Below are positions 31,787-64,000 of a stretch of DNA of 64,000 bases, in pieces; position 1 is the stretch's first letter, and every line of letters begins with the position of its first letter. Position numbers and translations under genes: made by a program. The notes beneath the pieces are model-generated. The model was not told the DNA's origin. It made no database searches and saw only the letters and a list, made by a program, of their open reading frames with translations. This DNA comes from a virus, in IMG/VR virus record IMGVR_UViG_3300025892_000012, positions 29,493 to 93,492 of that record; one strand, 5' to 3'.

Positions 31787-32368
31787 ATGGCAACACTTAC
31801 GATTGGTGGAAAAACAGTAGTAACGCAGACAGGCACGGATGAGCCTATAATGACAAGTAATGTTGTGATGGATAATGTTAATGTGAACAATGCATTGGCA
31901 AGTGCTACGTTTCCTGCTGGACATATGTTAAGACATTTTTATGATGAATATAATTTTAATGGGTCTCCTGCTACAATCACAACAACCGCATCAAATTGGA
32001 GCGGTCTACAAATTGATATAATTAATCCTAATACAAGTAATTATTTATTTTTACAAATGTTTATTCCTGACGTATATTGTAGCGGTTCAAGTAATGGACT
32101 TGGAGGTGGTTTTGTTTATAGTACAAATTCTTTTAGTTCAGAATCAATTTTAGGTTCATCTGCTTGGTATTTTAATCAACATTCATGGACAAGTTCTGGT
32201 TCAAATTTAAATAATACTAGTTTGACTGTTAGAGTATTACATCCAACAAGTAGTAACTATTCAATAAGACCATATTTTCAGGCTTATAATGCAAGTTTAA
32301 GTATAGGACAAGGCAATAGTGGCAATAAGTCTATCGCAACATTATTTGCTATGGAGATACAAGGATGA
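31787..32368 (+). CDS. Receptor-binding tip, TFPAGH family
   Basis: MATLTIGGKTVVTQTG...ATFPAGH...LFAMEIQG. Confidence 0.75.
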   Translation: MATLTIGGKTVVTQTGTDEPIMTSNVVMDNVNVNNALASATFPAGHMLRHFYDEYNFNGSPATITTTASNWSGLQIDIINPNTSNYLFLQMFIPDVYCSGSSNGLGGGFVYSTNSFSSESILGSSAWYFNQHSWTSSGSNLNNTSLTVRVLHPTSSNYSIRPYFQAYNASLSIGQGNSGNKSIATLFAMEIQG

Positions 32369-32799
32369 AAACATATTTTGAAGTGGTTATAGATTTAGTA
32401 GGTATTGAAAATATTTGTAACGGACCATCCAATGGACCTGTATCTCAAATTAAATTTATAAATGGATTTGTAAACATACCCACTGAAGAAGAAATCCAAG
32501 CAAAGATAGCAGAACTTCAAGCAGCCGAACCACTACGTCTATTAAGAATAGAACGAAACCAAATTCTTCAACAATCTGATTGGGAAGTTCAACGCAATAC
32601 AGAACGCAACATTACAGATTCAAATCTAATAGACTATCGTAATGCACTCCGAGACCTTCCACAAGAAATAGCAAATGGAAACATTCCAGCACCTACACTG
32701 GATGAGAATGGAATGCTGGTGTTTGAACATTGGCCGAATCGCTATGAGATAAATATAGAAGATGAACCAACAGCAAACAATTCAGCTAATACAGTTTAA
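32365..32799 (+). CDS. Tail assembly chaperone with C-terminal extension
   Basis: AEPLRLLRIERNQILQQSDW...YRNALRDLP...FEHWP plus ~20 extra residues. Confidence 0.85.
   Translation: MKTYFEVVIDLVGIENICNGPSNGPVSQIKFINGFVNIPTEEEIQAKIAELQAAEPLRLLRIERNQILQQSDWEVQRNTERNITDSNLIDYRNALRDLPQEIANGNIPAPTLDENGMLVFEHWPNRYEINIEDEPTANNSANTV
32749..32755 (+). promoter_or_regulatory. Possible late promoter ATAAATA
   Basis: GATAAATATAG, identical to the element at 50482; ~45 bp before socket gene 32799. Confidence 0.4.
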
Positions 32800-33023
32800 T
32801 GCCGTCAAAAAGTAACGCCAAACAAAAATCAATTATAGTTGGTATTAACACAAAAACTTTTACCAATGATGTTGAAGTTGCTGAAAACTATTCTGCAATT
32901 CTCAGTGGTCCTGTAAGTGTACCAAACATCACTGTCAATGGTACTTTAAATGTGATCAACAATCTAAGTGTAGATGGTGATATTGTGATTGGTCCAAATG
33001 GTAATTTAAATCTAACAGGATGA
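32799..33023 (+). CDS. Socket connector
   Basis: YSAILSGPVSVPNITVNGTLNV...GPNGNLNLTG. Confidence 0.7.
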   Translation: MPSKSNAKQKSIIVGINTKTFTNDVEVAENYSAILSGPVSVPNITVNGTLNVINNLSVDGDIVIGPNGNLNLTG

Positions 33024-33024
33024 T

Positions 33025-33747
33025 ATGCCCAACGCAAGTTTGACAATAGATGGAACAGAAGTTATCAGCAAAGTAAATGGCTCAACTTCTATTCAAATTG
33101 ACACCGTAGAAAGTAATGATATAAAAAATGCACATGGAAATGTTGTTGGTTTTAGATCTGTTCAAATATTTGACACTGTTGGTACATCAACATGGACAAA
33201 GCCCGCTGGTGTAAATTATATAAAAGTTTATGTTACTGGCGGAGGAGGTGGCGGTGGTTCTCACAACCAAGATGATGCTCAAGGAGGTGGTGGAGCAGGG
33301 GGAACTACAATTAAATGGATTGATGTACGACAAGTAACAAGCGTATCTGTCACAGTTGGAGTTGGAGGTACACGTTCTATTGGTAATTCAGGAGGTGGTG
33401 GAGGTCCTGGAGGCACATCATCTTTTGGTTCGTATTGCTCTGCCACAGGTGGTGAAGAACCAGAAACTTGGGCAGTTGGTGGATATGGTGGTGTTGCTAC
33501 TGGAGGAGATATCAATTTGTATGGTAATGCAGGAATATGTGGCAACATAGATGGCGGTGGCAATGAAGAAAGTAGTGGAGTTGGAGGTGCTTCTTATTGG
33601 GGTGGAACAGGCAGAGGAGGTAGTGTTTGGGGTGCAAGGTCTAATCCAAATGGATGGGGATGTGGTGGTTCAGGCACCCATGTAAGCACTAATAATGAAG
33701 GTGCTGATGGATACAAAGGTGCTGTTATTGTAGAGGAATACGTATGA
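33025..33747 (+). CDS. Glycine-rich adhesin-like tip
   Basis: Plug MPNASLTIDGTEVIS; TWTKPAGVNYIKVYVTGGGGGGG...GGTSSFGSY...GAVIVEEY polyglycine domain. Confidence 0.75.
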   Translation: MPNASLTIDGTEVISKVNGSTSIQIDTVESNDIKNAHGNVVGFRSVQIFDTVGTSTWTKPAGVNYIKVYVTGGGGGGGSHNQDDAQGGGGAGGTTIKWIDVRQVTSVSVTVGVGGTRSIGNSGGGGGPGGTSSFGSYCSATGGEEPETWAVGGYGGVATGGDINLYGNAGICGNIDGGGNEESSGVGGASYWGGTGRGGSVWGARSNPNGWGCGGSGTHVSTNNEGADGYKGAVIVEEYV

Positions 33748-34079
33748 AAAAGGCGCTTATACATTTAGATAAAATTGTACAAGTTTCAGATTCCACATTT
33801 GAAGTTCATTCCAGTATGAAATGGGTAGACTGTCCAGATAATTGCACTACTAAATGGAAATATGAAAATGAACAATTCATTGAAAATGTTTATACAGATG
33901 AAGAAAAATTAAGAGATTTGAGATTAGCAAGAGGAACTAAGTTAAGAAAAACAGATTGGTGGGTTTTACCAGATAGAACTCCAACACAAGAGCAATTAAA
34001 CTATAGACAAGCTTTACGGGATATTACTAACACATATACATCACTTGATGATGTTATTTGGCCGGAGAAACCTGAATAA
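33744..34079 (+). CDS. Tail assembly chaperone
   Basis: FEVHSSMKWVDCPD N-domain; LRLARGTKLRKTDW...YRQALRDIT...WPEKPE. Confidence 0.85.
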   Translation: MKKALIHLDKIVQVSDSTFEVHSSMKWVDCPDNCTTKWKYENEQFIENVYTDEEKLRDLRLARGTKLRKTDWWVLPDRTPTQEQLNYRQALRDITNTYTSLDDVIWPEKPE

Positions 34080-36871
34080 TGCCATTCATCGGAGCACCGT
34101 CACCTAAAGAATTACAATCCATAGAAACCATTTCTGACCGTAAAACATATACGGGGGATGGCATAAAAACTATTTTTGGCGTTAGCTATGAATCCAATCA
34201 TATTAGTGTATTTCAAAACGGCTTAAAACTTATTGAAGGTATTGACTATAATATTGCATCTACTGGTCAGTATATAACATTTGTTATTGCTCCAGAAAGT
34301 GGAGATGTAATTGATTTAGTCGGTGCAAGTGGAGTTACTAATTTAGCACAATCAAGTTATTCAAGAGAAACATTTGTCTCTCTCGCAAATCAAACATCAT
34401 TCATTCTTTCAACAAATATAGATGATTCTTTTAGAACAAATGTATATGTAAATGGAATAAGATTAACAGAGACTGATTATACAATATATAATTCAAATAA
34501 TACACTTGAATTTAATTCTGCTCTTGCAGTAGATGATACTGTTGCTATAGAATTAATTAAACCTGGATTTAGAATAGTAGATGGTACTCTTGATGTTTCA
34601 AATCTAACACAAACAAGTTATGCTAGAGAAGCTTTTGAAAATATATCAAACACTTCCAATGTAATATTATCTTCAAATATTGATGCTAGTACAAGATTAA
34701 ATGTCTTTTTTAATGGTGCTAGATTACATGATACATCATTTACCATTGATGTTGCAAATAATAAAGTAACTTTCAATCAAAGTATATCAGCTAATGATGT
34801 AATAGAATTTGATATATTCAGTCCTGGTTTCAGAACGATTGATAGTGTATCAACAGGAATATCTAATTTTTCTCAATCTAGTTATAATGAAGAAGTGTTT
34901 CAAGCAATTGAAAACCAAACGGTCATAACACTTGATACAGACATTAATAGTTCTTATTTTATTAATGTATATAATAATGGTATTCGTTTAAATTTAGAAG
35001 ATTATACATTTAATTATTCTGCAAATACTATTACATTTACAGAAGCATTATTTGCTAATGATGTTATTACAGTGGACACATTTAGACCTGGATTTAGAAT
35101 ACAAGGTGTACGCACATTTCTTTCTGACTTAGTTGATGTAAATTCTACTGCTACTGCAAATCAAGTTCTGACTGCAGATGGAACTGGTAATTTCTATTTT
35201 GCTAATACAGCAGGCGGAAGCGGAAGTGTTTCACTAGCTTCATTCACGGCTAATGGTACAATCACAACAGGAGATACAGTAGCATTACGAATAGATAATG
35301 GAGAAATTGAAAAGATTGCACATCCCATAATAGCACAATATACAGAAGTTTCACAAACATTAAGTGAAGCAACTACAACTGGTACTACATTTTTTGATGT
35401 AGATTATGATGAAAACACAAGTTCTGCCATTGTTGCTCAAAGAAGTTCAGTTTCTCCTTTTAATGGATTAGTAAGTATAGGAACAGTGACTGAAACCTCA
35501 AATACGACCACAAACGGAGAAACCACAAGAGAAGTTGGTTTTAATTGGGGTACACCTGTAGCATGGAACTCAGACAATATTTCTAACACAGTTGTTGCAA
35601 TTGATACTGACCAAAATAAAGTAGTTATAACTTATATTAATAATAGTGATGCAATCAACATATATGCAGTAGTTGGAGATATAAGTGGAAATAGCATCAC
35701 ATTTGGAACTCCTCTTGAACTTTATACAACAAGGTCAAGATTTAATTCAATAGTATATGATACTAATTCAAATAAAATGGTGATATACTTTCAAGATTAT
35801 AATTCCTTTTATATGTACTATGCAGTATGTACGGTTTCTGGTACAAATATAACACTTGATTCACCAGTGACATTTATAGTAACTACGGCATCTAATGCAT
35901 ATTCAACTGCTCTATACATACCCGAATTAAATAAGCATGTTTTACTCTATCATGATACTTCTAATTATGTAACGATAATGATTGGTGAACTTGCTAATGG
36001 AACTATAACATGGGGGTCGGCAGTAACTGTACAATCTGCAGCCGGAATCACACCTATTTGCCGATATGATAGTGTAAATGAAAAACTACTTCTTTATATT
36101 GGTCAGAATACTGCAGACAGTAACTACCAGTCAGTATTTATTGGTACAATTACCAATAATTCTGTAACTTTTGGTTCTGCTATAAGAGTTAGTACTGCTA
36201 ATCCGTTTTCTGGCGTTGCTAATATTTTTGTTCATCATAAAGCCAGCAATAAATTTATAATTGGTGGTGCTGATGGAAATAATAGTTCTTATCCATATTA
36301 TAACGTAGTTCAAATAGATGATTCTGCTCCTAATGGATTATCAATTTCAGGTGTTACTGATATAGTTTCTACAGGTTCAACTTATTTTGGATTAGGTGGT
36401 GGTGTGTATGCGAGTAATTTTGAAAAAATATTTGTAGGTATACGTTTAGATAATACTACCAGACCTAATGTTTGGACATATAATCCAGAATATACATCAT
36501 ATGATCTAACAACAACAAATGCGACTAATTATATAGGTATAGCCAAAGATTCTGTAAACAATGGTCAAGTATCTGAAGTATTTTTAGTAGGTGATATTGC
36601 GGACAATCAAACTGGACTTACCGTAAATCAAAATTACTATTTAACTGGAAGTGGTTTGTTAACTACATCATCTACTTCTTATGGTTTAATTGGCAGAGCA
36701 GTATCAGATACATCTATACAACTATTACAAACTACATCAAAATCACTAACAGACCTAAATATAACAGATGGTACTTCTGGTCAAGTTCTCAAAACATATG
36801 GCAATAATGCATTCTATTTTGCTGATGAAGAAAACCTTAATGCAATACTTTATTCAATTGCTCTCGGATAA
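34079..36871 (+). CDS. Multidomain fibre: four ~85-aa repeats, propeller-like domain, IALG end
   Basis: MPFIG start; V(Y/F).NG.(R/K)L...Y...F...D.I...PGFR x4; ISGNSITFGTP-type blades; ends YSIALG. Confidence 0.75.
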   Translation: MPFIGAPSPKELQSIETISDRKTYTGDGIKTIFGVSYESNHISVFQNGLKLIEGIDYNIASTGQYITFVIAPESGDVIDLVGASGVTNLAQSSYSRETFVSLANQTSFILSTNIDDSFRTNVYVNGIRLTETDYTIYNSNNTLEFNSALAVDDTVAIELIKPGFRIVDGTLDVSNLTQTSYAREAFENISNTSNVILSSNIDASTRLNVFFNGARLHDTSFTIDVANNKVTFNQSISANDVIEFDIFSPGFRTIDSVSTGISNFSQSSYNEEVFQAIENQTVITLDTDINSSYFINVYNNGIRLNLEDYTFNYSANTITFTEALFANDVITVDTFRPGFRIQGVRTFLSDLVDVNSTATANQVLTADGTGNFYFANTAGGSGSVSLASFTANGTITTGDTVALRIDNGEIEKIAHPIIAQYTEVSQTLSEATTTGTTFFDVDYDENTSSAIVAQRSSVSPFNGLVSIGTVTETSNTTTNGETTREVGFNWGTPVAWNSDNISNTVVAIDTDQNKVVITYINNSDAINIYAVVGDISGNSITFGTPLELYTTRSRFNSIVYDTNSNKMVIYFQDYNSFYMYYAVCTVSGTNITLDSPVTFIVTTASNAYSTALYIPELNKHVLLYHDTSNYVTIMIGELANGTITWGSAVTVQSAAGITPICRYDSVNEKLLLYIGQNTADSNYQSVFIGTITNNSVTFGSAIRVSTANPFSGVANIFVHHKASNKFIIGGADGNNSSYPYYNVVQIDDSAPNGLSISGVTDIVSTGSTYFGLGGGVYASNFEKIFVGIRLDNTTRPNVWTYNPEYTSYDLTTTNATNYIGIAKDSVNNGQVSEVFLVGDIADNQTGLTVNQNYYLTGSGLLTTSSTSYGLIGRAVSDTSIQLLQTTSKSLTDLNITDGTSGQVLKTYGNNAFYFADEENLNAILYSIALG

Positions 36872-36879
36872 TTTAAGAC

Positions 36880-37179
36880 ATGGCTACATTTAAAAGAAAA
36901 GCTGCAACTGCAAATACTGCTGGCGTGATCGTTCATACAACACCCGCCGGTATTACTGCATTAATCATTGGTTTAGTTCTAGCAAACAAAGGTAGTAGTT
37001 CTGAAACTGCAGATGTAGATATTGACGGAACATATGTTGTGAAGAATGCACCGATTCCAGTTGGAAGTACACTTTCAGTACTTGATGGTAAAATGGTTGT
37101 TCAGCAAAATGAAATTATCACAGTCACTGCATCGGCTAACAATGTCATAGATGCCACAATCAGCATACTAGAATTATGA
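36880..37179 (+). CDS. ~100-aa adaptor family protein (copy 3)
   Basis: HTTPAGITALIIGLVLANK...APIPVGSTLSVLDGKMVV...ISILEL. Confidence 0.75.
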   Translation: MATFKRKAATANTAGVIVHTTPAGITALIIGLVLANKGSSSETADVDIDGTYVVKNAPIPVGSTLSVLDGKMVVQQNEIITVTASANNVIDATISILEL

Positions 37180-37454
37180 GTGGTTACTTAGGTTCAAAAA
37201 GAGCGGTCAACTTTGCTACAGTACAGTTGCCGATAAAATCAAAAGACATGGAAATCATCACAGAGCATGGTGCAATTGCTCAAAGAAATTCAATACCCGA
37301 AGCAGTAACTATAGATGAGGGTACAAATGTAGCTTTTTATGGTGATGTAACATTTGATTCTTTAGTCACAGTCAATGGAAATTTAATTGTGATTGGTGGA
37401 GACATTGACTTCAAAGGTGGTGCGGACATCGTAGGAAAATTAATCTATCGTTAA
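37176..37454 (+). CDS. Socket connector with YLG N-terminus
   Basis: MSGYLGS...TNVAFYGDVTFDSLVTVNGNLIVI...IVGKLIYR. Confidence 0.65.
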   Translation: MSGYLGSKRAVNFATVQLPIKSKDMEIITEHGAIAQRNSIPEAVTIDEGTNVAFYGDVTFDSLVTVNGNLIVIGGDIDFKGGADIVGKLIYR

Positions 37455-37456
37455 CT

Positions 37457-38110
37457 ATGCCTGACATAAACATAAACGGTTATCCATTTATATCTCAATC
37501 TGGAACGAATGTACCTGAAATTGACAATGTTAAAATAGGTGCAAGTGTTGATACTGTTTCCAATACAGGTGCAGGATATAAACCAGCAGAAGTTTGGCTT
37601 TCTACAACTGAAATTTCAGCACAAGATACTGTCATAAATCTACCATCTGGTTATAAAAAGTATCATGTTATTGGACATAATGTATTTTGGGGTGGAACGG
37701 CCTCAACTGGTGATATTAGAATGTACATGCGTTATAACAACAATACACAAGATGATACTGGTTTACAAATGAGTGAATGGTATAAAAGATTAGATGCTGC
37801 GGGATATGGGCAAGAAGTATGGGATGGTTTTGTTGTTATTTCAAATAATATGGGAACAGACCCAACAGAAAATTCTTTTTTTGATATTTGGTTAAATGGT
37901 TGTAATGAGGCCAATAAAACCAGGGGATATACAGGATATGGTATGTCCACTTATGGTCATACCTCAGACCAACATGCATACCATTATACTATTGGTTTTA
38001 GATCACAATTAACAGATGCTATAGATGGTTTTAGAATATATTTTCATCCCGATGATAATGCTATTACTTCTTATGGTGGCACAATAGTTGTAACAGGATA
38101 TACTTTTTAG
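37457..38110 (+). CDS. Receptor-binding tip (distinct fold)
   Basis: Plug MPDININGYPFISQSG; LPSGYKKY...IDGFRIYF...GGTIVVTGY. Confidence 0.7.
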   Translation: MPDININGYPFISQSGTNVPEIDNVKIGASVDTVSNTGAGYKPAEVWLSTTEISAQDTVINLPSGYKKYHVIGHNVFWGGTASTGDIRMYMRYNNNTQDDTGLQMSEWYKRLDAAGYGQEVWDGFVVISNNMGTDPTENSFFDIWLNGCNEANKTRGYTGYGMSTYGHTSDQHAYHYTIGFRSQLTDAIDGFRIYFHPDDNAITSYGGTIVVTGYTF

Positions 38111-38123
38111 GATTTAACATAAC

Positions 38124-38726
38124 ATGCCTGAACTTAAAATAAACGGTTACACATTTGCAACTCAAGCTGACGGCAACAATCCTGTGCTGGCGAGTAATGT
38201 TGATTTAGGTAGTGCTACGTTTCCTGCTGGGCATGTTCTACAGGTAAAAGGTGTAATTAGGAATACAGAATGGCAAGGACCAGATACAGTAAATGATAAT
38301 CATACGCTTTTTACAACTGACACTTTCACAACTACTGCACATACCAATACTGCATTTAAAGTAGAAATTACTCCAGCATCAAATGCTTCTAAATTTCTTG
38401 TTCAATATGCAATTAATATTGGTAACACAAGTACCGGCATAAGTTTAAAATTGCATCGTGGTAATGCTACATCACCAATTTATGGTTCTAGTGGTAGTAG
38501 AACACCACAGAATTCTGGCAAAGAATGGACAGGAGATAATAATCAATCGTCTCAAACTTACTATTCTATACTAGATGAACCTGCAACTGATAGCACATTA
38601 ACCTATTATCTTACTTATGTTTATTTTGGGGTTAAGCCTTGGTTTAACACAAATGTAAGCAGAAATGGTGCGGCGTATGATGATGCGTATACATCCACTC
38701 TTATTGTTATGGAGATATCAGGATGA
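38124..38726 (+). CDS. Receptor-binding tip, TFPAGH family
   Basis: MPELKINGYTFATQ...SATFPAGHVLQV...ITPASNASKFLV...LIVMEISG. Confidence 0.75.
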   Translation: MPELKINGYTFATQADGNNPVLASNVDLGSATFPAGHVLQVKGVIRNTEWQGPDTVNDNHTLFTTDTFTTTAHTNTAFKVEITPASNASKFLVQYAINIGNTSTGISLKLHRGNATSPIYGSSGSRTPQNSGKEWTGDNNQSSQTYYSILDEPATDSTLTYYLTYVYFGVKPWFNTNVSRNGAAYDDAYTSTLIVMEISG

Positions 38727-39100
38727 CCGACTTTAGGAATCAAGCAATCTATGCATTATCTCCGGATGGAGATTGGATGTGGGACGATGGTAATCTCATT
38801 TGGTGTAGCCCAAATGTTGCTCAACCAACACAAGCAGAAATAGATGCTAAATTAGCAGAACTAGAAGCAGCCGAACCACTACGCCTATTAAGAATAGAAC
38901 GCAACCGATTACTACAAGAAACAGATTGGGAAATTACTAGAGGATTAGAAGAAGGATTAAATATAGATAGTTTAAAAACATATAGAACAGCACTTAGAAA
39001 CTTACCACAACAAATAGAAGCTGGAGAAATAACAGCACCTACTTTGAATGACAATGGTATGTTAGTGTTTGAACATTGGCCGGAAAGAACAGATGCCTGA
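38723..39100 (+). CDS. Tail assembly chaperone
   Basis: AEPLRLLRIERNRLLQETDW...YRTALRNLP...FEHWP. Confidence 0.85.
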   Translation: MTDFRNQAIYALSPDGDWMWDDGNLIWCSPNVAQPTQAEIDAKLAELEAAEPLRLLRIERNRLLQETDWEITRGLEEGLNIDSLKTYRTALRNLPQQIEAGEITAPTLNDNGMLVFEHWPERTDA

Positions 39101-39695
39101 AATAAGAATTAATAATAAAGTATTAGTAACACAAACTGGAGCGGCTGAGCCTGTATTGGCGAGTAATGTTAATTTAGGTAGTGCTACGTTTCCTGCTGGG
39201 CATATTATTCAGACAGTACAACATGTATTTACTGGAACTGCATCTATTAGTTCAGTATCTACTGATAGTTTTGCATCATTTAATATTCCGTTTAGTAAAG
39301 GAATTACTCCATTTCTAAGTTCATCAAAAATTTTGGTGAGCGTTAATATAAGTTTAGGACATGATGCAGGTTCAATTCATACTGCAATATACAGAGATGG
39401 AACTAAACTCACAGGAGCAGCAGGTGACGTAGCAGGAAATAGGTTTGGTAGTACCACTCTTTCTAGATATGCAAATCCTGCATATGGTTTTGGTTGTAAT
39501 TCAATGAGTTTTAATTATTTAGATTCACCAACAATACCTACCACACCTATAGAAATTGTTTATGAAATAAAAGCAACTCTTGGTGCAAGTTATAATGATG
39601 GTATATATTTGAATCATAGTGCGAGTGACAGTACTAATATGGATTACACACCAAGAACAGCATCTTTTATGACATTATTTGAGATAGCACAATGA
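39093..39695 (+). CDS. Receptor-binding tip, TFPAGH family
   Basis: Start ATG 39093: MPEIRINNKVLVTQTG...SATFPAGHIIQ...MTLFEIAQ. Confidence 0.75.
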   Translation: MPEIRINNKVLVTQTGAAEPVLASNVNLGSATFPAGHIIQTVQHVFTGTASISSVSTDSFASFNIPFSKGITPFLSSSKILVSVNISLGHDAGSIHTAIYRDGTKLTGAAGDVAGNRFGSTTLSRYANPAYGFGCNSMSFNYLDSPTIPTTPIEIVYEIKATLGASYNDGIYLNHSASDSTNMDYTPRTASFMTLFEIAQ

Positions 39696-40054
39696 ATTAT
39701 CTAGCAAAAGCATTGGGGGAATTAAGACCACAAGAAGGCATGATTTATAATTCAGAATTACCACCAATTGCAAGTAAAATAATTTATGATTCTGAATCAA
39801 CTGTTAAAATTACACAAGAAGAATTAGATAACAAAATACAAGAAATTAAAGATAGGCAACCACTACGCCTGCTAAGAATAGAACGTGATCGATTGCTACA
39901 AGAAACAGATTGGCGTTTTCGTTCAGACCTAACACCATCTCAAGCATGGATTGACTATTGCCAAGCATTGAGAGATTTACCTGCAAACAGTGAACCACAA
40001 TTGAATGAGAATGGAGAATTGACAAACGTAACATGGCCGGAGAAACCTGAATGA
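39692..40054 (+). CDS. Tail assembly chaperone
   Basis: QPLRLLRIERDRLLQETDW...YCQALRDLP...WPEKPE. Confidence 0.85.
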   Translation: MNYLAKALGELRPQEGMIYNSELPPIASKIIYDSESTVKITQEELDNKIQEIKDRQPLRLLRIERDRLLQETDWRFRSDLTPSQAWIDYCQALRDLPANSEPQLNENGELTNVTWPEKPE

Positions 40055-40806: not shown

Positions 40807-40810
40807 ATTA

Positions 40811-54270: not shown

Positions 54271-54306
54271 TATAATAAAATAGTAAAATTCATTTAATAT
54301 AATTAC

Positions 54307-55002: not shown

Positions 55003-55016
55003 AATATAGGATTTAA

Positions 55017-56492
55017 ATGCCGTACATTGGTTCAGCAGTAAAAAGTATAAACACAAGGTCAGCAGTTGACCATCAACAATTTCTTGGTTCATCTGCAGAT
55101 ACTGTTACAAATCCTGGATACTATACATTCTATGTGAACTATTCACCGGGTAATATATCTGTTTTTGTAGCAGGTAATAATATAAGTCATACAGACTATA
55201 CTGCTAATAATGGTACTGATGTAAGAATTTCTACAAGCACATTAACAATTAATCCAGCGGATAATGTAGAAATCATTGGTTATAATATACCAACAAGTCA
55301 AGTGTTAGAAAGAAGTGATGTGAATATTACTGGTGGAAGTATACGAAATGTTGAAATATCTGATTCTAATTTTCTTGGAACAAACAATGTACAATTTTCT
55401 ACGGGTCTGCCAGTTGTAGATAGTACTGGAAATAATGTTATAAGTGAAAGTGGGGGAGTAGTTACTCTTGCAAATAATGTTGTTCCTAGCAGTAGTTATA
55501 TGTTTCGGAACAAGATTATCAATGGTAATTTTGACATTTGGCAACGTGGGACAAGTCAGACAAGTAGTGGGTATGGAAGTGCAGATAGGTGGAATAACAC
55601 TCATTCTGGGCCATCATCTAAAACAGCATCACAAGGAGTATTTGCTTTAGGTCAAACTGATGTTCCAGACAATCCTAAATATTATTTAAGGACTGTATTT
55701 ACAAGTTCAGGTGGGAATGGTGATATTTGTCTAACCCTACAAAATATAGAAGATGTTAAAACATTAGCAGGGCAAACAGCAAAATTGAGCTTTTGGGCCA
55801 GAACAACAGGTTCCAATAAAAACATTGCAACTGAAATTATTCAATATTTCGGAACTGGTGGTTCTCCATCACCTTCCGTTCTTTCAATTGGGACAACAAC
55901 TCACACACTAACAAGTTCGTGGCAGAAATTTACAACTACTGTTTCTATTCCGTCTATTAGTGGAAAGACCATTGGCACAGATGCTAATGATTACTTAGGT
56001 TTAAATTTTTGGTTTGAAGCAGGTGCTAACATAAATTCTTCTAGAACTAATTCATTAGGCAACCAATCTGGAACCTTTGACATTGCCCAAGTCCAGCTTG
56101 AAGAAGGCACAGTTGCGACACCGTTCGAGCATCGGCCTTATGGGTTAGAGTTAAGTTTGTGTCAACGCTACGCACATTTTATAAGACCAGCATCACAATA
56201 TGCTGCAATTGGTGTTGGAAGAGCGTGGAGTTCTACACAGGGAAATGCTCATGTGTATCTTCCAGTCAGTATGCGAGGTGCTATAGCAATAGAATATTCA
56301 AATCTTAGCCATTTTGATTTACCCCCTGCAGGAGAAGGTGTTAATGGACTACACAATGACGGGTCAACTAAACAAACTGTGAAAGTTGGATGGGTAAGAA
56401 ATTCAAATGTCACAAGTGGTACTTACTATCAATTAGAGTTTGAAGATTCAAATTGGCAAAATGCTTATCTAGGTTTTACTTCGGAGTTGTAA
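55017..56492 (+). CDS. Fused fibre: YIG N-domain plus FRNKIING module plus unique tip
   Basis: N-domain paralogous to 26839; middle closely similar to 48047; ends FTSEL. Confidence 0.8.
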   Translation: MPYIGSAVKSINTRSAVDHQQFLGSSADTVTNPGYYTFYVNYSPGNISVFVAGNNISHTDYTANNGTDVRISTSTLTINPADNVEIIGYNIPTSQVLERSDVNITGGSIRNVEISDSNFLGTNNVQFSTGLPVVDSTGNNVISESGGVVTLANNVVPSSSYMFRNKIINGNFDIWQRGTSQTSSGYGSADRWNNTHSGPSSKTASQGVFALGQTDVPDNPKYYLRTVFTSSGGNGDICLTLQNIEDVKTLAGQTAKLSFWARTTGSNKNIATEIIQYFGTGGSPSPSVLSIGTTTHTLTSSWQKFTTTVSIPSISGKTIGTDANDYLGLNFWFEAGANINSSRTNSLGNQSGTFDIAQVQLEEGTVATPFEHRPYGLELSLCQRYAHFIRPASQYAAIGVGRAWSSTQGNAHVYLPVSMRGAIAIEYSNLSHFDLPPAGEGVNGLHNDGSTKQTVKVGWVRNSNVTSGTYYQLEFEDSNWQNAYLGFTSEL

Positions 56493-56672
56493 ATGCAATA
56501 TAAATTAATCAATGGACCAAATAATAAACCTATTAGTATTATGATAGTAGGTGGTAATGTAAGTTTTCCTTTATCTGAGGATTGTAATTATTACCAAGAA
56601 TACTTGGCATGGCTAGCAGAAGGCAATGAACCAGAACCGGCAGATGAACCAATACAACAACATGAGGAATGA
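56493..56672 (+). CDS. Small chaperone-like partner, 59 aa (missed by ORF track)
   Basis: MQYKLINGPNNKPISIMIVGGNVSFPLSEDCNYYQEYLAWLAEGNEPEPADEPIQQHEE. Confidence 0.8.
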   Translation: MQYKLINGPNNKPISIMIVGGNVSFPLSEDCNYYQEYLAWLAEGNEPEPADEPIQQHEE

Positions 56673-56675
56673 TTA

Positions 56676-57320
56676 ATGCCATTCATAGGAAATCAACCCA
56701 CACAAGAAAAAATACAAGACCATCGTTCATACACTGGTGATGGTGTTAGAACGGCATTTGGTGTTCAGTATGAAGGTGGTGCAGTACTTGTATTTCAAAA
56801 TGGTATAAAATTAAAAGAAACCGAAGATTATTTATTAAATGATATAGGCACATTTGTTACTTTTGTAGATGCGCCATTAGCAAATGATGTCATAGACCTA
56901 TATGGAACAAGTGAAATCACAGACCTATCACGTTCAACATATGCCAAAGAAACTTTCACTGCAGCAAAATATCAAACTAACTTTCAAGTACATAATCCAA
57001 TATCACCAACAGAACGTATCAATGTTTATGTAAATGGTTTAAGATTATCTGAAGTAGATTTTACAATTGATTATGTAAATAAAACTATTATTGTTCCGGA
57101 GAGAGACACAGATGATATTGTAATGGTTGAAGTGATCTCACCAGGCTTTAGAAGTTCTATGCATAATGCCAAAAATGAAAAGGCATATCATCCAATGTTC
57201 TCCACACCGGATGAGATAAATAGTGATATAGTAATACCAGAAGGAGAGAACGCAATGCTAGTTGGTCCCGTTACTCTGAATGGTGTAATCACTCTCAATG
57301 GAACACTCACCGTAGTATAA
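56676..57320 (+). CDS. Two-repeat scaffold with FIG N-terminus and socket C-terminus
   Basis: Paralog of the 34079 N-terminus; ends ENAMLVGPVTLNGVITLNGTLTVV. Confidence 0.8.
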   Translation: MPFIGNQPTQEKIQDHRSYTGDGVRTAFGVQYEGGAVLVFQNGIKLKETEDYLLNDIGTFVTFVDAPLANDVIDLYGTSEITDLSRSTYAKETFTAAKYQTNFQVHNPISPTERINVYVNGLRLSEVDFTIDYVNKTIIVPERDTDDIVMVEVISPGFRSSMHNAKNEKAYHPMFSTPDEINSDIVIPEGENAMLVGPVTLNGVITLNGTLTVV

Positions 57321-57327
57321 AAAATAA

Positions 57328-60300
57328 ATGGCAAGCATACTCAAAATTGATGTATTAGAACAAAGATACGCCAATTCAGGATTATATCTTTCTGGTAGGA
57401 TTCACGGTCCTCAGGGAGATATAATTAATAATGGTAGAGTTGTTCTTCCTGGAAACTTTGAAGCAAATACATTCAATGTTCTTGAAAGTCTAGATGCTAA
57501 TACAATAAATGCCAATACAATATTTCTCGGTGGAGTCAATGGTAAGCTTGAATTTGACGCAAACACTTCCACATTAAAAATCAATAATGCTTCCCTTGCA
57601 TTACAATCTGATGTCTCTACATTAATTGAAAATAGTTACACTAAGTTTACAGCAAATAGTTCAATTACAGCAGGAGATTTAGTAAGTTTATTAGATAATG
57701 GTAAAATTGAAAAGACAGCAGAAGCGAGTGTTAGAACTAACAGTGTTGGTGCTACTACAACATTTGATAGTAATGCTAGTGACAACATATATGTTCAATA
57801 TGATAAAACTTTAAACAAAGTACTTGTTTCATATGCGGTTGGAAGTTCCTCTGCTTGCTACGGTGTACTTGGAACGGTTAATGCTGACGGAAGTATAACA
57901 TTTGGAACACCACTTCAGATTACTTCTCAATATAATTTGATGACTGGTGCGATAGACCCCGTTCAAAATAGAGCAGTTTTTACATTTTTAGGTGATGTAT
58001 ATATTGCTGAAATTTCTGGTAACAATCTTATAAATTTACAATCTCCAATAACATTTGATAGTAGTACAGAAAATTATAATGCGACAATATATGACCCAAA
58101 TTCTGGTAAAATAATAATAGCATATTCAGATAGTGCGAGTCCTACAGGTAGAGCAGGTAATGTACTGGCGGTAACTGTTAATGGAAATTCAATTACATTT
58201 GGACAAACAACTGTTTTTGAGGCTTCCAATACAGAAACGATTTCTTTAAGTATAGATAATGATACAAATAAAATAATTATCGGATATTCATTAATAGGAT
58301 CATCCGCTAGATGTGTTATCGCAACTGTATCTGGAACAACAATAACAACAAGCTCACCTGCCGTTGCCTCTCCAGGTACAGCAGATTTTGTAAAATTTAC
58401 TTATGCTTCAAATGGCATAGTTGTTGCTGCTTTCCGTGATAATACTAATAGTAACTATGGTGCATATTCTATAGGACAGATATCTGGCAACTCAATAACA
58501 TTTGGAAGTTCTGTTGTTTTCAATTCTGCAACTTCCGTACCAATAGGTTTGAGTTATGATAATGTAAATGAGAGAATTTCAATTTCATACAATGATTTTG
58601 GAAACAGTAATTATGGTACAGTAAAATCCGGTATAATTGAAAACGGAGCTATAACATTTGAAGCTACAGATATATTCAATAGCAGTGCTACATATGAAGT
58701 TTTTAGTGTAGTTGATACCACATACAATAGAATTTTAATAGGATTTAAAAATGGTGCTACTGGTCCTGGTAGAATAAATGTATATTCAACGTTTGGAACC
58801 GAATATAAAGATAACGTAGATAATTATATTGGAATAGCAAAGGATTCAATTGCTGCTACTCAGGAAGGTTCTGTATTCATAATTGGAGACATTGCTGATA
58901 ATCAAACAAGTCTCACAGAAAATCAAATTTATTATGTTGATAAAACAGGAAGCCTAACCACATCCAAAACAGAATATAGTATTGTAGGTAGAGCGGTATC
59001 AAATACGTCAATACAATTACTTGACAATAAACCAACATTACTTACTGATTTAAATATTATAGATGGAACTAATTCACAAGTATTGACAACATATGGTAAT
59101 GGTTCTTTTTATTTTGCCGCAGCTAGTGACCCTATAGCAGTATCCAAAACTAATACTACAAATGCCATTCTATCAACAGTTACAAATGTAAATGATTTTA
59201 GATTTGATAGTGATAGTGGTTTTGATGTTGTTGATTTAGGAGCAGGTGCAGTAAAGATTCAAATGAATTCAACTTTCAAAACATTGAAAGTTTCTGGTCA
59301 GAGTGATTTAGTAGCAACTGGTTTAGATACATTAGAGTTAATAGGTTCTGGAATAACAATTACAACAGATGCTGTAGCTAATCCTAAAACACTCACATTT
59401 ACTGGTGCCAGCACTCTTACTGATTTGGGAATAACTGATGGTAGTGCAAATCAAGTATTAATTACAGACGGTTTAGGAAACTATTCTTTTGCTAATGCTG
59501 CTTCGGGAGGCGCAAGCACACTAACAGATTTAGGCATAGCTGATGGTGAATCAGACCAAGTGCTTACAACAGATGGAAATGGTAGTTTCTTCTTTGGACA
59601 TTCATTATCTATATTAAATCAAGATTTGATTGATGGTGGAGAAATTACAGAATTGCGTGATTGTCGTACAGTTATTGATTTAGGTAGTGTAGATACAAGA
59701 TTGGGATATGCCGTACCTGAAGGTAGTAAAACTATTCTTTTAGCAAATGATTCTACAATTGTTTCTTCTACAAATGATATAATTATATCAGAAACAAATG
59801 GATTTGCAAAATTAGAAAATGTCACTATAGATTTAAGTGGAAAAACGGATGCAATTATAGTTCCAAAAGGTACAACAGCACAAAGACCTAGTTCACCTAT
59901 TGCTGGAATGATTCGTTATAACACAGAATTAGACCAGTATGAATTATATGATGAAACAACAACAGCTTGGGGAAAACTTGGAGATCAACCACCTACAATT
60001 TCCAGTATTTCTCCTGCCACAACAGAAACTGTTTCAGGTACAACACAATTTACTGTGGTCGGCACTAATTTTGAATCCACAGGAATGACAACTCAATTTG
60101 TGAGTACGGTAGATAGTACCGCTGTAAATAGAACTGCATTTATTTTTGATAATAGTGGTCAAATTAGAATCACCTTTGATAACACAGATTTTGATGCCGC
60201 AAAAGAACCTTACAATTTAATTGTTACAAAATCCAGTGGTTTAAGTGTTACTAAACTAAATGCATTATATGTAGATGAAGCTCCTGTTTGGTCACTTACA

Positions 60301-61269
60301 AGCACAAATATTGCTACTATTTTACCACAAGCAATTACAAATGTCAATATAGATTTACCTACAGCAACAGACCCTGAAGGAGATATAGTAACTTATAGTG
60401 GGAGTAATTTACCTAGCGGTTTAAGTATTGATGCAAACACTGGTGATTTGAGTGGTAGTGTTCCTGCAGCAAATACAGAAATAGAATATACAGTTACTAT
60501 AAATGCACAAAGCACTGGTAGTGACCCGGGTGCAACACAAAAAACCACAACAAGACAACCCACAATCATTGTGAAACCTGTGATTGAAAATTCCTTGATG
60601 TTTGATGGGAGCAGCTATTTAAGTAAAAGCACAAGTGATAACAGCACCAATTCAAGTATTAAGACTTGGTCTTTTTGGGTTAAAAGATCAGTTCTAGGAA
60701 CAAACTTTTATATGACCGGAGGATTCAAATCGGGGAACTCAAATACTTTTGATATCTACTTTCATACTGATGATACTTTTAGTGTCCAGTGGGGTGGCAG
60801 TTCTGCATTACTTAACAGATCCAGTGCGGTATTTAGAGATACATCTGCGTGGTATCATATATTGGTGCATAAAAACAGCACTTCACAAAGTTTTTACATT
60901 AATGGCAGTTTGGTTAGTTTAGCAACAACTAACACAACTTCGTCATCAGTGGCATTTGCTGAAAACGGGATGTCTGTCTCTGGTAATTATGGCAGTTTCA
61001 TTGGTGGAGGTGGATTTGGAGGAAGCAATAACATAATTGGCTACCTCGCCAACATCCATTTCATAGACGGACAAGCATTGACCCCAACATCATTCGGTGA
61101 AAGTATAAATGGTATCTGGTTGCCGAAAGTTTACAATCCAACAGGTAATGCACTAACAGATTACGGTACAAATGGTTTCCACCTTACATTTGCACCAAGC
61201 ACAATTAGCGGCACAACTGTACAAGATATTTCTGGTAGAGGAAATGATTGGACAGCAAATGGTTTTTAA
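57328..61269 (+). CDS. Large fibre: plug, propeller-like domain, spacers, Ig-like domains, LamG/ConA-like C-terminal domain
   Basis: MASILKID plug; region homologous to the 34079 C-half; PKGTTAQRP; ATDPEGD..LPSGLSID Ig; SLMFDGSSYL..TWSFWVKRS..FRDTSAWYHI..GYLANIHFIDGQAL. Confidence 0.8.
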   Translation: MASILKIDVLEQRYANSGLYLSGRIHGPQGDIINNGRVVLPGNFEANTFNVLESLDANTINANTIFLGGVNGKLEFDANTSTLKINNASLALQSDVSTLIENSYTKFTANSSITAGDLVSLLDNGKIEKTAEASVRTNSVGATTTFDSNASDNIYVQYDKTLNKVLVSYAVGSSSACYGVLGTVNADGSITFGTPLQITSQYNLMTGAIDPVQNRAVFTFLGDVYIAEISGNNLINLQSPITFDSSTENYNATIYDPNSGKIIIAYSDSASPTGRAGNVLAVTVNGNSITFGQTTVFEASNTETISLSIDNDTNKIIIGYSLIGSSARCVIATVSGTTITTSSPAVASPGTADFVKFTYASNGIVVAAFRDNTNSNYGAYSIGQISGNSITFGSSVVFNSATSVPIGLSYDNVNERISISYNDFGNSNYGTVKSGIIENGAITFEATDIFNSSATYEVFSVVDTTYNRILIGFKNGATGPGRINVYSTFGTEYKDNVDNYIGIAKDSIAATQEGSVFIIGDIADNQTSLTENQIYYVDKTGSLTTSKTEYSIVGRAVSNTSIQLLDNKPTLLTDLNIIDGTNSQVLTTYGNGSFYFAAASDPIAVSKTNTTNAILSTVTNVNDFRFDSDSGFDVVDLGAGAVKIQMNSTFKTLKVSGQSDLVATGLDTLELIGSGITITTDAVANPKTLTFTGASTLTDLGITDGSANQVLITDGLGNYSFANAASGGASTLTDLGIADGESDQVLTTDGNGSFFFGHSLSILNQDLIDGGEITELRDCRTVIDLGSVDTRLGYAVPEGSKTILLANDSTIVSSTNDIIISETNGFAKLENVTIDLSGKTDAIIVPKGTTAQRPSSPIAGMIRYNTELDQYELYDETTTAWGKLGDQPPTISSISPATTETVSGTTQFTVVGTNFESTGMTTQFVSTVDSTAVNRTAFIFDNSGQIRITFDNTDFDAAKEPYNLIVTKSSGLSVTKLNALYVDEAPVWSLTSTNIATILPQAITNVNIDLPTATDPEGDIVTYSGSNLPSGLSIDANTGDLSGSVPAANTEIEYTVTINAQSTGSDPGATQKTTTRQPTIIVKPVIENSLMFDGSSYLSKSTSDNSTNSSIKTWSFWVKRSVLGTNFYMTGGFKSGNSNTFDIYFHTDDTFSVQWGGSSALLNRSSAVFRDTSAWYHILVHKNSTSQSFYINGSLVSLATTNTTSSSVAFAENGMSVSGNYGSFIGGGGFGGSNNIIGYLANIHFIDGQALTPTSFGESINGIWLPKVYNPTGNALTDYGTNGFHLTFAPSTISGTTVQDISGRGNDWTANGF

Positions 61270-61283
61270 TAGGATAAATTAAT

Positions 61284-63137
61284 ATGGCAGTTATAGATCA
61301 CGTTTTTCCTGATTCACCAACGAATACTTTTGCTACGCTTAATGTTTTAGATGCAGAATCTGCTACACTTAGTAATGGCAATTTAGCCGCAACAATAAAT
61401 GCTGGGCCAAACAACTCAACAACAATAATTCCGTCATCCGGTACATGGTATTGGGAAGTTTACATAACTGACCACACAAACATTTATATGGGAATTCAAA
61501 AGATAGAAACTCAAGAAAGCGGATATTCTCAAGATGCAGTGGCAGTTAATAATGTTGGAAATGTCTATTATGATGCTAGTTACCAAAATAAAGATGCACT
61601 GCCTTCAATTGCAACCGGAGATATTATTTCTGTTTTTTGGGATATAGATAATAAAAAAATTTGGTTTGCTCAAAATGGTCAATTTTATGATGCGACAGGA
61701 ACAACTCATCCCACTTTAACACTTTCCCAAGTAGCCAGTGGTGTGAACGGATATGATTATAGTTCTAATATTCCAAATAGTGCTAAACCTTTCTTTGGTA
61801 GTTCAGCGACTTCTGCAGGAATTATTTGTAATTTCGGTCAAGACAGTTCTTTTGGCGGAAATAAAACTAGCGGATCAGCTAATGCTACTGATTCTGGTGG
61901 TATAGGAGACTTTTATCATTCAGTACCAACGGGTGCAAAAGCATTATGCACATCAAATATTCAAAGTAACTTAGCTATAGATCCAGCAGTGGATGATTTG
62001 CCGGAAGACTACTTTAAATGTGTAAAATATAACGGTGTTAGCACTGGTGGGGGTAATTTTGCTGTGCCAGTAGGTTTCCAAAGTGATTTAATTTGGATTA
62101 AAAGACGAAATAACGGTAATTCGCATAATCTTTTTGATTCTGTCAGAGGATTTGATAAGTGGATAATATCAGATTTTTCGGGGGCCGAAAGGAATAACAC
62201 TTCTAACAATAGTGGTAATTCTAAAATATCAACAGTCAATAGCAGTGGGTTTACAGTACACGATAATCATAATGCGGAAGTCAATGACGGTACTGCTGGG
62301 TCAGCTAGTCAATATATCAGTTGGAATTGGAAAGCCGGTGGTGCGCCAAGTGGATCAAACATCTATATGAAGAATGATGTAGGATATACTAGTTCAACGT
62401 CAGATAAAGCAACTGTATTTGGTAACGCTAGTAACTATACGATTACTCCAGCATCAGCAAGTATTAATACAAAAGCGGGTTTTAGTATAATTAAGTATCT
62501 TTCTCCAGACGATTCGGGAGGAGCAGTTTCTACTGCTACTGTGCCGCACGGTCTTAGCGCTGCACCAGATTTTATAATTTGCAAGAATTTAGACACTTCA
62601 TACAACTGGGATATTTATCATAGCAGTGTTAATTATTCTGGAATTTTTACAACTGCAGCGATTAACTCAAGAAACGCATTCGGCACAATTAACTCTAATA
62701 TTTTTACAACTAAAGACACATTTACGCATCATGATGATGATGAGTACATAGCATATTGTTTTACAAGTATTCCCGGCTACTCCGCATTTGGTTCGTATAC
62801 TGGTACTAATCATCAAGATAAAGGTTATCGTTCATTAGATTTTAAGCCTAGTTTCATTTTGATTAAAGATGTAACTTCGAGTGGTAATTGGGCTATGTTT
62901 GATAATCAAAGAGGCCCGATTAATCCAATAGATCATTGTTTATTAGCTGATTCTGCTGCTGTTGAAACTACCAGCACTACTAGTAGTGGTCAAAATCAAA
63001 TCGACTTTTTAAGCAACGGGTTTTTTATTCGTTGCGATAATGCGAATAGCAAAATGGGGAATGTAACCGGAAATACTTACCTCTACGCAGCCTTTGCGGA
63101 AATGCCCTTCAAATACTCAGCAACGAACGCCAGGTAA
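61284..63137 (+). CDS. SPRY-like plus repeat-domain virion protein
   Basis: DSPTNTFATLN..SNGNL; SGTWYWEV; GDIISVFWDIDNKKIWF; VGFQSDLIWIKRR; HGLSAAPDFII; YLYAAFAE.PFKY. Confidence 0.75.
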   Translation: MAVIDHVFPDSPTNTFATLNVLDAESATLSNGNLAATINAGPNNSTTIIPSSGTWYWEVYITDHTNIYMGIQKIETQESGYSQDAVAVNNVGNVYYDASYQNKDALPSIATGDIISVFWDIDNKKIWFAQNGQFYDATGTTHPTLTLSQVASGVNGYDYSSNIPNSAKPFFGSSATSAGIICNFGQDSSFGGNKTSGSANATDSGGIGDFYHSVPTGAKALCTSNIQSNLAIDPAVDDLPEDYFKCVKYNGVSTGGGNFAVPVGFQSDLIWIKRRNNGNSHNLFDSVRGFDKWIISDFSGAERNNTSNNSGNSKISTVNSSGFTVHDNHNAEVNDGTAGSASQYISWNWKAGGAPSGSNIYMKNDVGYTSSTSDKATVFGNASNYTITPASASINTKAGFSIIKYLSPDDSGGAVSTATVPHGLSAAPDFIICKNLDTSYNWDIYHSSVNYSGIFTTAAINSRNAFGTINSNIFTTKDTFTHHDDDEYIAYCFTSIPGYSAFGSYTGTNHQDKGYRSLDFKPSFILIKDVTSSGNWAMFDNQRGPINPIDHCLLADSAAVETTSTTSSGQNQIDFLSNGFFIRCDNANSKMGNVTGNTYLYAAFAEMPFKYSATNAR

Positions 63138-63163
63138 TTATAATTATCAATGGAGAAAACAAT

Positions 63164-63375
63164 ATGGCAGAACAATTGAAATTGAAAACACAATTTTTGA
63201 AAACACAAACTTTTTTACAGCAGTAAATAAAGTTATAAATCATGATGAAGTTTCTATTGCCGATGCATATAGAATAAATAAGATCATTAAAAAAACTTAA
63301 AGAATTCAAGATGGAATTTTGGTCGCTGATATCAACAAACTAGAATTAATATTTGATTTTTCTAACATAGAATAA
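63164..63375 (+). pseudogene. Frameshifted remnant of a small fibre-associated gene
   Basis: GGAG RBS plus ATG 63164 is one base out of frame with TIEIENTIFEN...AYRINKIIKK; stop at 63298-63300 after an A-run; protein-like QDGILVADINKLELIFDF resumes. Confidence 0.5.
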
Positions 63376-63380
63376 AATAA

Positions 63381-63920
63381 ATGCCAGAAGTTATAAAATT
63401 TTCCAAAGGTACTGTAGCAGAACACAATAACTTTACGGGAGAGAATGGTGAAATCACATTGATTTGTGATGATAGCCCGAATCGTAAAGTTACTGGCATC
63501 ATACGTTTACATGACGGTCAGACTGTTGGTGGTGTTCCTTTTGGTGGTAGTCAATTGCTAAATGATTTACATGATGTAAATACTGCTAGTGCTACACTTG
63601 GTACTGTATTAACTGCTGGTGCTAATGACACGTTTTATTTTAATTCAGTAGTAACTAATCTAGCTGGATTGACTGATGTAATTTCTGCTAACACTGCAGC
63701 AAATGGTACAATACTTACAGCAGATGGTAATGGTGGTTTTAAGTTTGATACAATAGCAAAAGGTGGTGGAAACAATCAAGTGTTTTTTGAAAATGATACA
63801 ACAATCACAGATGATTATACAATCTCAGCAGGTAAGAATGCAATGACTGCTGGACCAATAACAATCGCAAACAATGCAACTGTAGTTATACCAGTTGGTT
63901 CAACTTGGACAATAGTGTAA
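63381..63920 (+). CDS. Socket connector with Mtd-N-type N-terminus
   Basis: KGTVAEHNNFTGENGEI..IRLHDGQTVGG (paralog of 54307); ends NAMTAGPITIANNATVVIPVGSTWTIV. Confidence 0.75.
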   Translation: MPEVIKFSKGTVAEHNNFTGENGEITLICDDSPNRKVTGIIRLHDGQTVGGVPFGGSQLLNDLHDVNTASATLGTVLTAGANDTFYFNSVVTNLAGLTDVISANTAANGTILTADGNGGFKFDTIAKGGGNNQVFFENDTTITDDYTISAGKNAMTAGPITIANNATVVIPVGSTWTIV

Positions 63921-63921
63921 T

Positions 63922-64000
63922 ATGGCAGAAAGTATATTAAAAACGGACGAAATTCGTCTATTAAATAATCAAGTGTTGATGAGTGATGGTGCGTTGACTG
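63922..64000 (+). CDS. Start of next tip gene (3'-truncated)
   Basis: MAESILKTDEIRLLNNQVLMSDGALT, closely matching the 51644 plug. Confidence 0.75.
   Translation, partial: MAESILKTDEIRLLNNQVLMSDGALT

Follow-up and report, generated by a model that had tools for sequence, protein, structure and literature searches.

Motif-mediated exchange of distal tail fibres and adhesins in T-even phages was reportedly described by Tetart et al. in 1998, the motifs (His boxes in gp37, glycine-rich motifs in gp38) being thought to act as crossover sites. We know of no strand-polar synonymous skew described for these gp37 and gp38 motifs. Similar skews are known from GRINS, in which GC and TA skews are correlated, peak at third codon positions, and mark gene-conversion-prone repeats of polyketide synthase genes (PMC8256042). 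On one strand these repeats switch abruptly between G+T-rich and C+A-rich stretches by an unknown mechanism; GRINS are defined as repeats of >500 bp with >80% identity within one cluster and mean absolute GC and TA skews >0.15, and are found mostly in GC-rich Streptomyces (PMC8256042). At human meiotic double-strand break hotspots, C and A are lost on the strand of the resected tail, in mirror image across the break (Hinch et al., Science 2023, PMC7615360), and RecA is reported to prefer TGG-type G/T-rich DNA (PMC3763553). Here, we examine a synonymous skew at the junctions of tail-fibre genes in a 64,000-nucleotide (nt) stretch of phage DNA (the window; positions 29,493 to 93,492 of IMG/VR virus record IMGVR_UViG_3300025892_000012) and in the fibre genes of other phages, where the third positions of a conserved protein motif flip from A/C-rich to G/T-rich at one fixed codon.

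The window, the right-hand part (64 kb) of a 93.5-kb contig, has an overall GC content of ~33% and almost every gene on the + strand. Its baseplate and fibre matches, along with tblastn comparison to Synechococcus, Prochlorococcus, Methylophilales, and Pelagibacter myophages, indicate a marine T4-like phage; a near-identity search of phage records gave no match to the window, and no close genome was found. The region from ~24 kb to the window end is a densely packed array containing ~20 short fibre genes of ~200 amino acids (aa) and four RNKIING-type fibres of ~330-490 aa (g46, g59, g61, and g71). Thirteen Phage_tail_APC tail-fibre chaperone paralogues (24956-53534) each lie 3' of their own short fibre gene, and these thirteen pairs are an unusually large receptor-binding repertoire for a single phage. 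DNA self-comparison of the window returned 47 constant blocks, mostly 60-260 nt long, with unrelated sequence between them. The longest pair, of 733 and 666 nt (48075-48807 and 55500-56165), is 71-87% identical piecewise, and the similarity of the two fibre genes concerned, g59 and g71, stops at a junction motif that we refer to by its first residues, VQLEEG.

An initial annotation had proposed that codons end in G just upstream of variable modules and in C just downstream, in a genome where codons otherwise end in A or T. All of the stretches that it quoted are present where it placed them, and background third positions in the window are indeed A 0.38, T 0.45, G 0.08, and C 0.09. As a control for amino-acid composition, we scored only the choice between G and C at fourfold boxes ending in one or the other. 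Among genes at or beyond position 24000 this choice is autocorrelated within 10 codons (r 0.17, z 4.7), also when stratified by the next base (z 4.3), and the signal arises mostly between pairs from different codon boxes; among genes before 24000 no such autocorrelation was found (z -0.9). The correlation is 0.23 within 15 nt and is gone beyond ~240 nt. The keto axis (G+T versus A+C) is likewise autocorrelated (z 3.6) and the purine axis is not, and neighbouring T-A skew correlates with the G-versus-C choice (rho 0.14). Within the skew, then, G travels with T and C with A.

We then scanned for individual patches in spans of 14 codons at |z|>=3, with codon box and next base controlled and 300 permutations as the null. 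Genes at or beyond 24000 contain 17 G/T-rich and 25 A/C-rich patches, compared with 5.0±2.2 and 5.8±2.3 under permutation. The local segregation of G- and C-ending codons thus survives control for amino acids. In the upstream 24 kb there is no excess (1 G/T-rich and 2 A/C-rich patches, with 3.0 and 4.0 expected), and the array is the sole part of the window in which skew patches are in excess. Nearly all sites named by the initial annotation are among these patches, at 51713 (z 3.6), 52675 (3.4), 50005 (4.7), 48788 (4.4), and 41498 (3.5) for G/T-rich DNA and at 47850 (z -3.4), 49103 (-3.8), 61030 (-4.0), and 63078 (-3.3) for A/C-rich DNA; 60570-60612 fell below the threshold.

Skew patches concentrate in DNA-constant blocks and in high-copy repeat families (Table 1). 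The strongest G/T-rich patches sit on three DNA-conserved protein motifs, VQLEEG..ATPFE..LCQRYY, RNKIING..IDQR, and TFPAGH, and 7 of the 9 G/T-rich patches within constant DNA lie at the 3' end of their block. Because most of the G-rich patches on these motifs are in mid-gene, ribosome-binding sites do not explain them, as had been foreseen. In g61, the G/T-rich half of the VQLEEG junction stops where DNA similarity to the paralogues stops. The core of the TFPAGH motif, the word ACG TTT CCT GCT GGG CAT or a near variant, recurs in eight genes at the end of the short fibres' N-terminal block, with G/T-rich patches of z 3.4 at 39171 and 52675. Three families begin A/C-rich and end G/T-rich, namely the chaperones, the TFPAGH N-terminus, and the RNKIING/VQLEEG fibres, each present in 5-12 copies. 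The skew thus flanks variable modules for the most-repeated junctions, and does not do so for constant DNA generally. Across uncollapsed constant blocks, the first half is C-skewed and the second half G-skewed in 21 of 32 (p 0.04), a result that is inflated because the blocks are paralogous.

The switch is abrupt and local. In 60-nt steps, GC skew moves from -0.33 to +0.44 at the g59 junction and from -0.16 to +0.75 at the g61 junction, with A-T skew changing in the opposite sense, and such values hold over only ~120 nt. An 81-codon antisense open reading frame (ORF) on the - strand (48606-48851) spans the g59 junction; most external copies have the corresponding frame closed, and the ORF is probably a by-product of stop-poor skewed composition.

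Table 1. Skew patches, junction copies, and related features of the fibre array, by position in the window
Feature	Position	Strand	Composition or basis
Array of short tail-fibre genes, 13 Phage_tail_APC chaperone paralogues, and small adaptor genes	24088..64000	+	paralogy, PHROG and Pfam matches
g61 VQLEEG junction, 5' half (codons -20 to 9; V codon GTC at 49969)	49909..49998	+	C 8, G 1 of 30 third positions
g61 VQLEEG junction, 3' half, PFEHRPYGLELGLCQRYY	49999..50052	+	G 9, T 8, A 1, C 0 of 18; z 4.66
g59 junction copy, V codon 48725	48665..48808	+	A/C-rich to 48754 (C 12, G 0 of 30; z -3.2), then G/T-rich (G 7, C 2 of 18; z +4.4)
g46 junction copy, V codon 41465	41405..41548	+	3' half G 7, T 7, C 0 of 18, z 3.45; 5' half weakly skewed
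g71 junction copy, V codon 56091	56031..56174	+	weaker flip; 3' half G 6, C 3 of 18
g61 RNKIING..IDQR motif, second swap point of RNKIING fibres	49324..49380	+	z 3.2
Starts of RNKIING paralogous copies	48149 (g59), 55506 (g71), 40940 (g46)	+	
g64 N-terminal junction, ending TFPAGHIIQ	51704..51760	+	G/T-rich; z 3.6
Recurrences of the TFPAGH core word (position of TTT)	29753, 31910, 38220, 39189, 46232, 47251, 52678	+	
Start of a further g64-type fibre gene, truncated by the window end	63922..64000	+	same G-rich N-terminal block
g65 A/C-rich patch, start of chaperone constant block, AEPLRLLRIERN	52381..52422	+	
Equivalent A/C-rich patches of other chaperones	38873-38914, 46899-46940, 47808-47891, 53334-53375		
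g60 (small gene) A/C-rich patch, start of DNA-constant block	49103..49144	+	z -3.8
A/C-rich patch close to g74 end	61030..61071	+	z -4.0; not in repeated DNA
A/C-rich patch at g75 end	63078-63119	+	z -3.3; not in repeated DNA

The observation is far stronger outside the window than inside it. The extended motif VQLEEGxVATPFEHRxxGxELxLCQRYY of the four larger fibres matches, by blastn at 72-80% identity over ~100 nt, the fibre genes of very different phages: Autographiviridae cyanopodophages, Kyanoviridae myophages (cyanomyophages), Methylophilales phages, and freshwater podophages, which have nothing else in common with the window phage. The window islands with such matches are 48700-48825 and 49944-50069, and the result is a DNA-similarity island of ~100 nt between otherwise unrelated podophage and myophage fibre genes; in 197 copies this island reaches from -30 to +90 nt relative to the V codon. 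We assembled two sets of copies from viral contigs. A degenerate DNA pattern yielded 115 distinct copies (contigs of 33-67% GC), and a protein pattern, which is independent of codon choice, yielded 64 (contigs of 35-65% GC).

Counting codons from the V of VQLE, third positions in the two sets favour C and A between about -20 and +9, switch at the Thr-Pro step, stay G/T-rich through codon 27, and return to background immediately where conservation of the motif ends. Expected values were taken from 43,750 background codons in the same loci, matched for codon box, for the next base, and for GC class. Across the 64 protein-pattern copies, the G/T fraction is 0.29 over codons -20 to 9, where 0.505 is expected, and 0.73 over codons 10 to 27, where 0.53 is expected. 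The flip is present in 61/64 protein-pattern copies and 112/115 DNA-pattern copies, as well as in 58 of 61 clusters with unrelated flanking DNA (p 1.5e-11), and it is alike in low-, middle-, and high-GC contigs. Since the same flip falls at the same codon in other phages spanning 33-67% GC, the skew appears, from these comparisons, to belong to the junctions and to be no local scar of the window genome. Its conservation at the same sites over this range argues for a maintained bias or selection.

Identical amino acids change codon between the two halves of the motif. Phe is TTC in 50 of 63 copies in the 5' half and TTT in 79% in the 3' half, and Tyr likewise moves from TAC (53/63) to TAT (84%), Glu from GAA (90%) to GAG (64-75%), and Gln from CAA (67%) to CAG (~90%). 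Fourfold boxes are sorted in the same way, ~14 in the 5' half preferring C and ~9 in the 3' half preferring G, with a single exception at codon 13. Third-position frequencies at the junction columns are 60-90% and hence not fixed. At the fourfold sites of the 3' half T is down (0.27 versus ~0.40), and only G is up. The first base of Leu codons follows the skew as well, with a C:T ratio of 85:51 in the A/C-rich half versus 48:74 in the G/T-rich half.

The two other motifs show the same polarity outside the window. In 51 copies of RNxIING, C is 0.52 over codons 0-6 (0.38 expected) and G is 0.39 over codons 7-18 (0.17 expected), and its Ile codons read ATC, ATC, and then ATT within six codons. 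In 28 copies of TFPAGH, the ten codons before the motif have G at 0.21 (0.09 expected) and C at 0.05 (0.13 expected), and T rises to 0.62 within the motif itself (0.42 expected); by alignment, this patch occupies roughly codons 25-50 of its gene. Both A and C are below expectation in the 3' halves of all three motifs. The gain in VQLEEG and RNxIING is in G in the 3' half and in C in the 5' half, a shift toward GC and against the AT bias of the genomes, with T not enriched in their 3' halves. The T gain of TFPAGH comes mostly at the cost of A. The A/C-rich mirror image is seen in the 5' halves of two motifs, where pyrimidine-to-purine totals are unchanged, and in the chaperone patch of the window; it is a mirror image of composition and not of mutations. 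Fourfold sites of that chaperone patch are A 0.58, C 0.29, T 0.10, and G 0.03, and its Leu and Arg codons are mostly C-first.

Compared with GRINS, these islands show the same coupling of G with T and of C with A, strongest at third positions, and the same abrupt switch on one strand. Both features lie in repeated DNA of a modular gene family, the patches of the window being in excess only in the paralogue array and concentrated in its high-copy families. They differ in scale and placement. The constant blocks of the window, mostly 60-260 nt long, fall outside the limits of >500 bp and >80% identity, and the phage islands, at 50-100 nt, sit on specific protein motifs at module borders with a fixed polarity toward the neighbouring cassette. 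They are also common to unrelated phages and not confined to one cluster. Meiotic hotspots share with the phage junctions both the polarity and the depleted bases, A and C. The hotspot signal, however, consists of de novo mutations over flanks of 1-2 kb in a eukaryote, whereas the phage signal is an equilibrium composition over 50-100 nt in which G is the main gainer, and its correlation, gone beyond ~240 nt, does not match the kilobase extent of resection tracts. As at Chi sites and at GT-rich islands that RecA prefers to pair (TGG-type repeats, PMC3763553), the G/T-rich DNA is on the 3'-ending strand and oriented toward the incoming break. Unlike Chi, a specific oligomer that an end-processing nuclease recognises, the three motifs have no common defined oligomer, and a search for a Chi-like word among them gave nothing beyond GCTGG, which occurs only as an Ala-Gly codon pair.

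The longer word GCTGGG, which resembles the first bases of E. coli Chi, is found 12 times on the + strand of the window and once on the - strand, almost always as the Ala-Gly codon pair of TFPAGH copies, at eight sites within 29753-52688. Like the T-even genes, the window carries short DNA-conserved motifs beside unrelated variable receptor-binding segments. The phage feature is a miniature, polar variant of the skew islands in modular genes, and a new one.

Several simple accounts of the skew were set aside. A generic effect of gene position was rejected, as the N-terminal and C-terminal 40 codons show no G-versus-C difference. Also rejected were a plain rise in third-position GC content and a GC-biased conversion lacking polarity: although third-position GC is slightly raised in constant DNA, C is avoided at twofold codons of the 3' halves and A is retained at those of the 5' halves. 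Codon context was rejected since the skew persists after control for the next base, and reuse of the same codon since the signal comes from pairs in different boxes. Promoter and terminator consensus sequences showed no excess at the junctions, and a literature search on the motif gave nothing relevant.

We favour, with about an even chance of its being right, a recombination-linked origin of this strand-polar skew. The fibre array would consist of swappable cassettes joined by short DNA-conserved junction motifs, each cassette comprising a variable fibre tip and the variable N-terminus of its chaperone. The half of the junction toward the upstream module carries A/C-ending codons and the half toward the downstream variable module G/T-ending ones; the strand leaving the junction 5' to 3' is therefore G/T-rich on both sides. 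Because the same flip occurs at the same codon in unrelated phages of any GC content, it seems to be maintained by a process tied to the junction itself, and we infer that this process is homologous cassette exchange. A break or end within a cassette would yield 3' single-stranded tails, and these would pair within the junctions on either side. The skew could then arise in one of three ways: A and C may be lost on the tail through damage or error-prone fill-in, heteroduplex may be corrected with a polar bias, or G/T-rich tails may be selected as those best paired by recombinases. A recombinase preference for GT-rich DNA was the alternative raised by the initial annotation, and it may yet apply. 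That the first positions of Leu and Arg are skewed too suggests that the nucleotide strand itself is constrained and that wobble decoding is not the whole cause. The flip probably marks the site and direction of host-recognition module exchange.

In a bolder form, which we put forward tentatively and think rather doubtful, the junction motifs would be evolved directional recombination linkers, a miniature GRINS-like element common to unrelated podophages and myophages. Their outgoing G/T-rich strands would be selected for best recombinase loading or annealing, any carrier could swap receptor-binding cassettes in frame, and the same principle would underlie GRINS.

A number of observations weigh against an origin in recombination. 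The islands, at 50-100 nt, are far shorter than known resection tracts or GRINS. When the constant blocks of the window are collapsed to 9 repeat families, the last half exceeds the first in 6/9 (Wilcoxon p 0.57), and orientation relative to the variable modules holds in 3/9; the mirror-image rule of the initial annotation thus stands for three high-copy families and fails, as a general rule, in the other 6/9. The A/C-rich chaperone flank is absent from 76 external chaperone homologues, even the closest, which show no skew there. This mirrored flank is therefore specific to the window genome, a matter of one family in one genome. The proposal that the strand running 5' to 3' into the adjacent module is GT-rich is borne out at the ends of the three motif families, in the window and in 28-115 external copies, and at the A/C-rich start of the window chaperones, and it does not extend to the external chaperones. 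No direct recombination event was seen: few external pairs have long common flanks, and no recent recombinant was identified among them. Similarity stops at the island edges for nearly all pairs of the 197 external copies, a pile-up that is uninformative because amino-acid conservation and codon bias alone would end similarity there. Finally, G/T-ending codons are also those decoded by wobble, and a translational explanation predicts much of the same third-position pattern.

That explanation is the main rival to recombination. A/C-ending codons form Watson-Crick pairs with G34 and U34 anticodons and are read fast, and G/T-ending codons are read by wobble and slowly. A fast A/C-ending stretch followed by a conserved slow G/T pause could set the timing of folding or trimerisation ahead of synthesis of the variable tip. 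In favour of this, the skew follows the axis of wobble (keto/amino), each position keeps its bias over hosts of any GC content, and T and G are both up in TFPAGH. We nevertheless think a translation-speed patch fairly unlikely. Slow decoding does not account for the fall in T at the fourfold sites of the VQLEEG 3' half, where only G rises, nor for the first base of Leu and Arg codons, whose choice follows the skew and shows that the bias is not limited to the third position. At codons ~25-50, where TFPAGH lies, little of the chain would yet be outside the ribosome, and a tRNA search of the window found none encoded.

Alternatively, no process need be involved, and the junctions may be old DNA words frozen by identity selection or descent, their C-then-G order an accident of ancestral sequence and amino-acid placement. 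Codon choices are common column by column among the paralogues, and amino-acid type sets part of the G/C choice at twofold codons, both as such freezing predicts. It is hard to reconcile, however, with one polarity in three unrelated motifs, with fourfold boxes almost perfectly sorted between the halves, codon 13 apart, or with identical amino acids that change codon from one half to the other. The unfixed third positions suggest balance over a frozen state, and we consider frozen words improbable.

Spontaneous C->T and A->G deamination of 3' single-stranded tails, in the history of this genome itself, was the cause originally offered. It has the correct polarity and would deplete A and C, as observed in all three 3' halves. 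Its chemistry fits poorly. Dominant cytosine deamination should raise T, but in two of the three motifs T stays the same or falls, the third gains its T mostly from A, and the net change is toward GC. The patches are only 50-100 nt long, and a skew that recurs at the same sites over contigs of 33-67% GC is no local scar. We therefore regard deamination as highly improbable. The original observation is partly confirmed and its recombination geometry plausible, and the deamination chemistry is not supported.

The last candidate, an RNA or DNA hairpin between the C-rich and G-rich halves or else an overlapping gene, can be dismissed as most improbable of all. Compared with shuffled sequence, folding is somewhat better for two of the four copies in the window (z -2.1 and -2.6) and no better for the other two (z +0.2 and +0.3). 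RNAalifold detects no consensus structure among 115 and 51 copies (mean z -0.2), no Rfam family matches, and no other frame is open in >12/64 copies.

Several further features of the window concern its fibres and their neighbours. Small genes 3' of the RNKIING fibres (49133-49215, 50388-50470, and 56583-56665) have a common Glu/Pro-rich end (..AWLAEGNEPEP..) with A-rich third positions, and may encode adaptor or plug peptides. Residues 119-194 of g59 (48020-49015) have a marginal PDB sequence match to a laminarinase 16A chain (1gui, E 0.068), a hint that a sugar-binding fold may lie between this fibre's two swap points. A structure prediction for g61 made without an alignment had a predicted local distance difference test (pLDDT) score of 33 and was unusable. 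Upstream of the array, g04 and g05 (12922-18501) encode two large fibre proteins with a common C-terminal domain, identified as Peptidase_S74 by Pfam in g04 and alike by blastp in g05. Peptidase_S74 is an intramolecular chaperone of the endosialidase type, an assembly route unlike that of the separate chaperones further downstream. At the other end, g75 (61284-63137) encodes a 617-aa structural protein with an SPRY domain and DUF7483, and its final 15 codons, strongly A/C-rich, overlap the start of the next small ORF.

It is an old open question whether phages exchange host-recognition modules by homologous crossover at conserved linkers or by random joining followed by selection. A silent-site signature of fixed polarity on module borders, reproducible in >100 phages, provides a handle on this question that is measurable in sequence and alterable at the bench. 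The signature also links phage fibres both to GRINS and to the tail asymmetry of meiotic hotspots, which suggests that skew islands in modular genes share a single cause. In fibre genes, such islands could serve as predictors of swap points.

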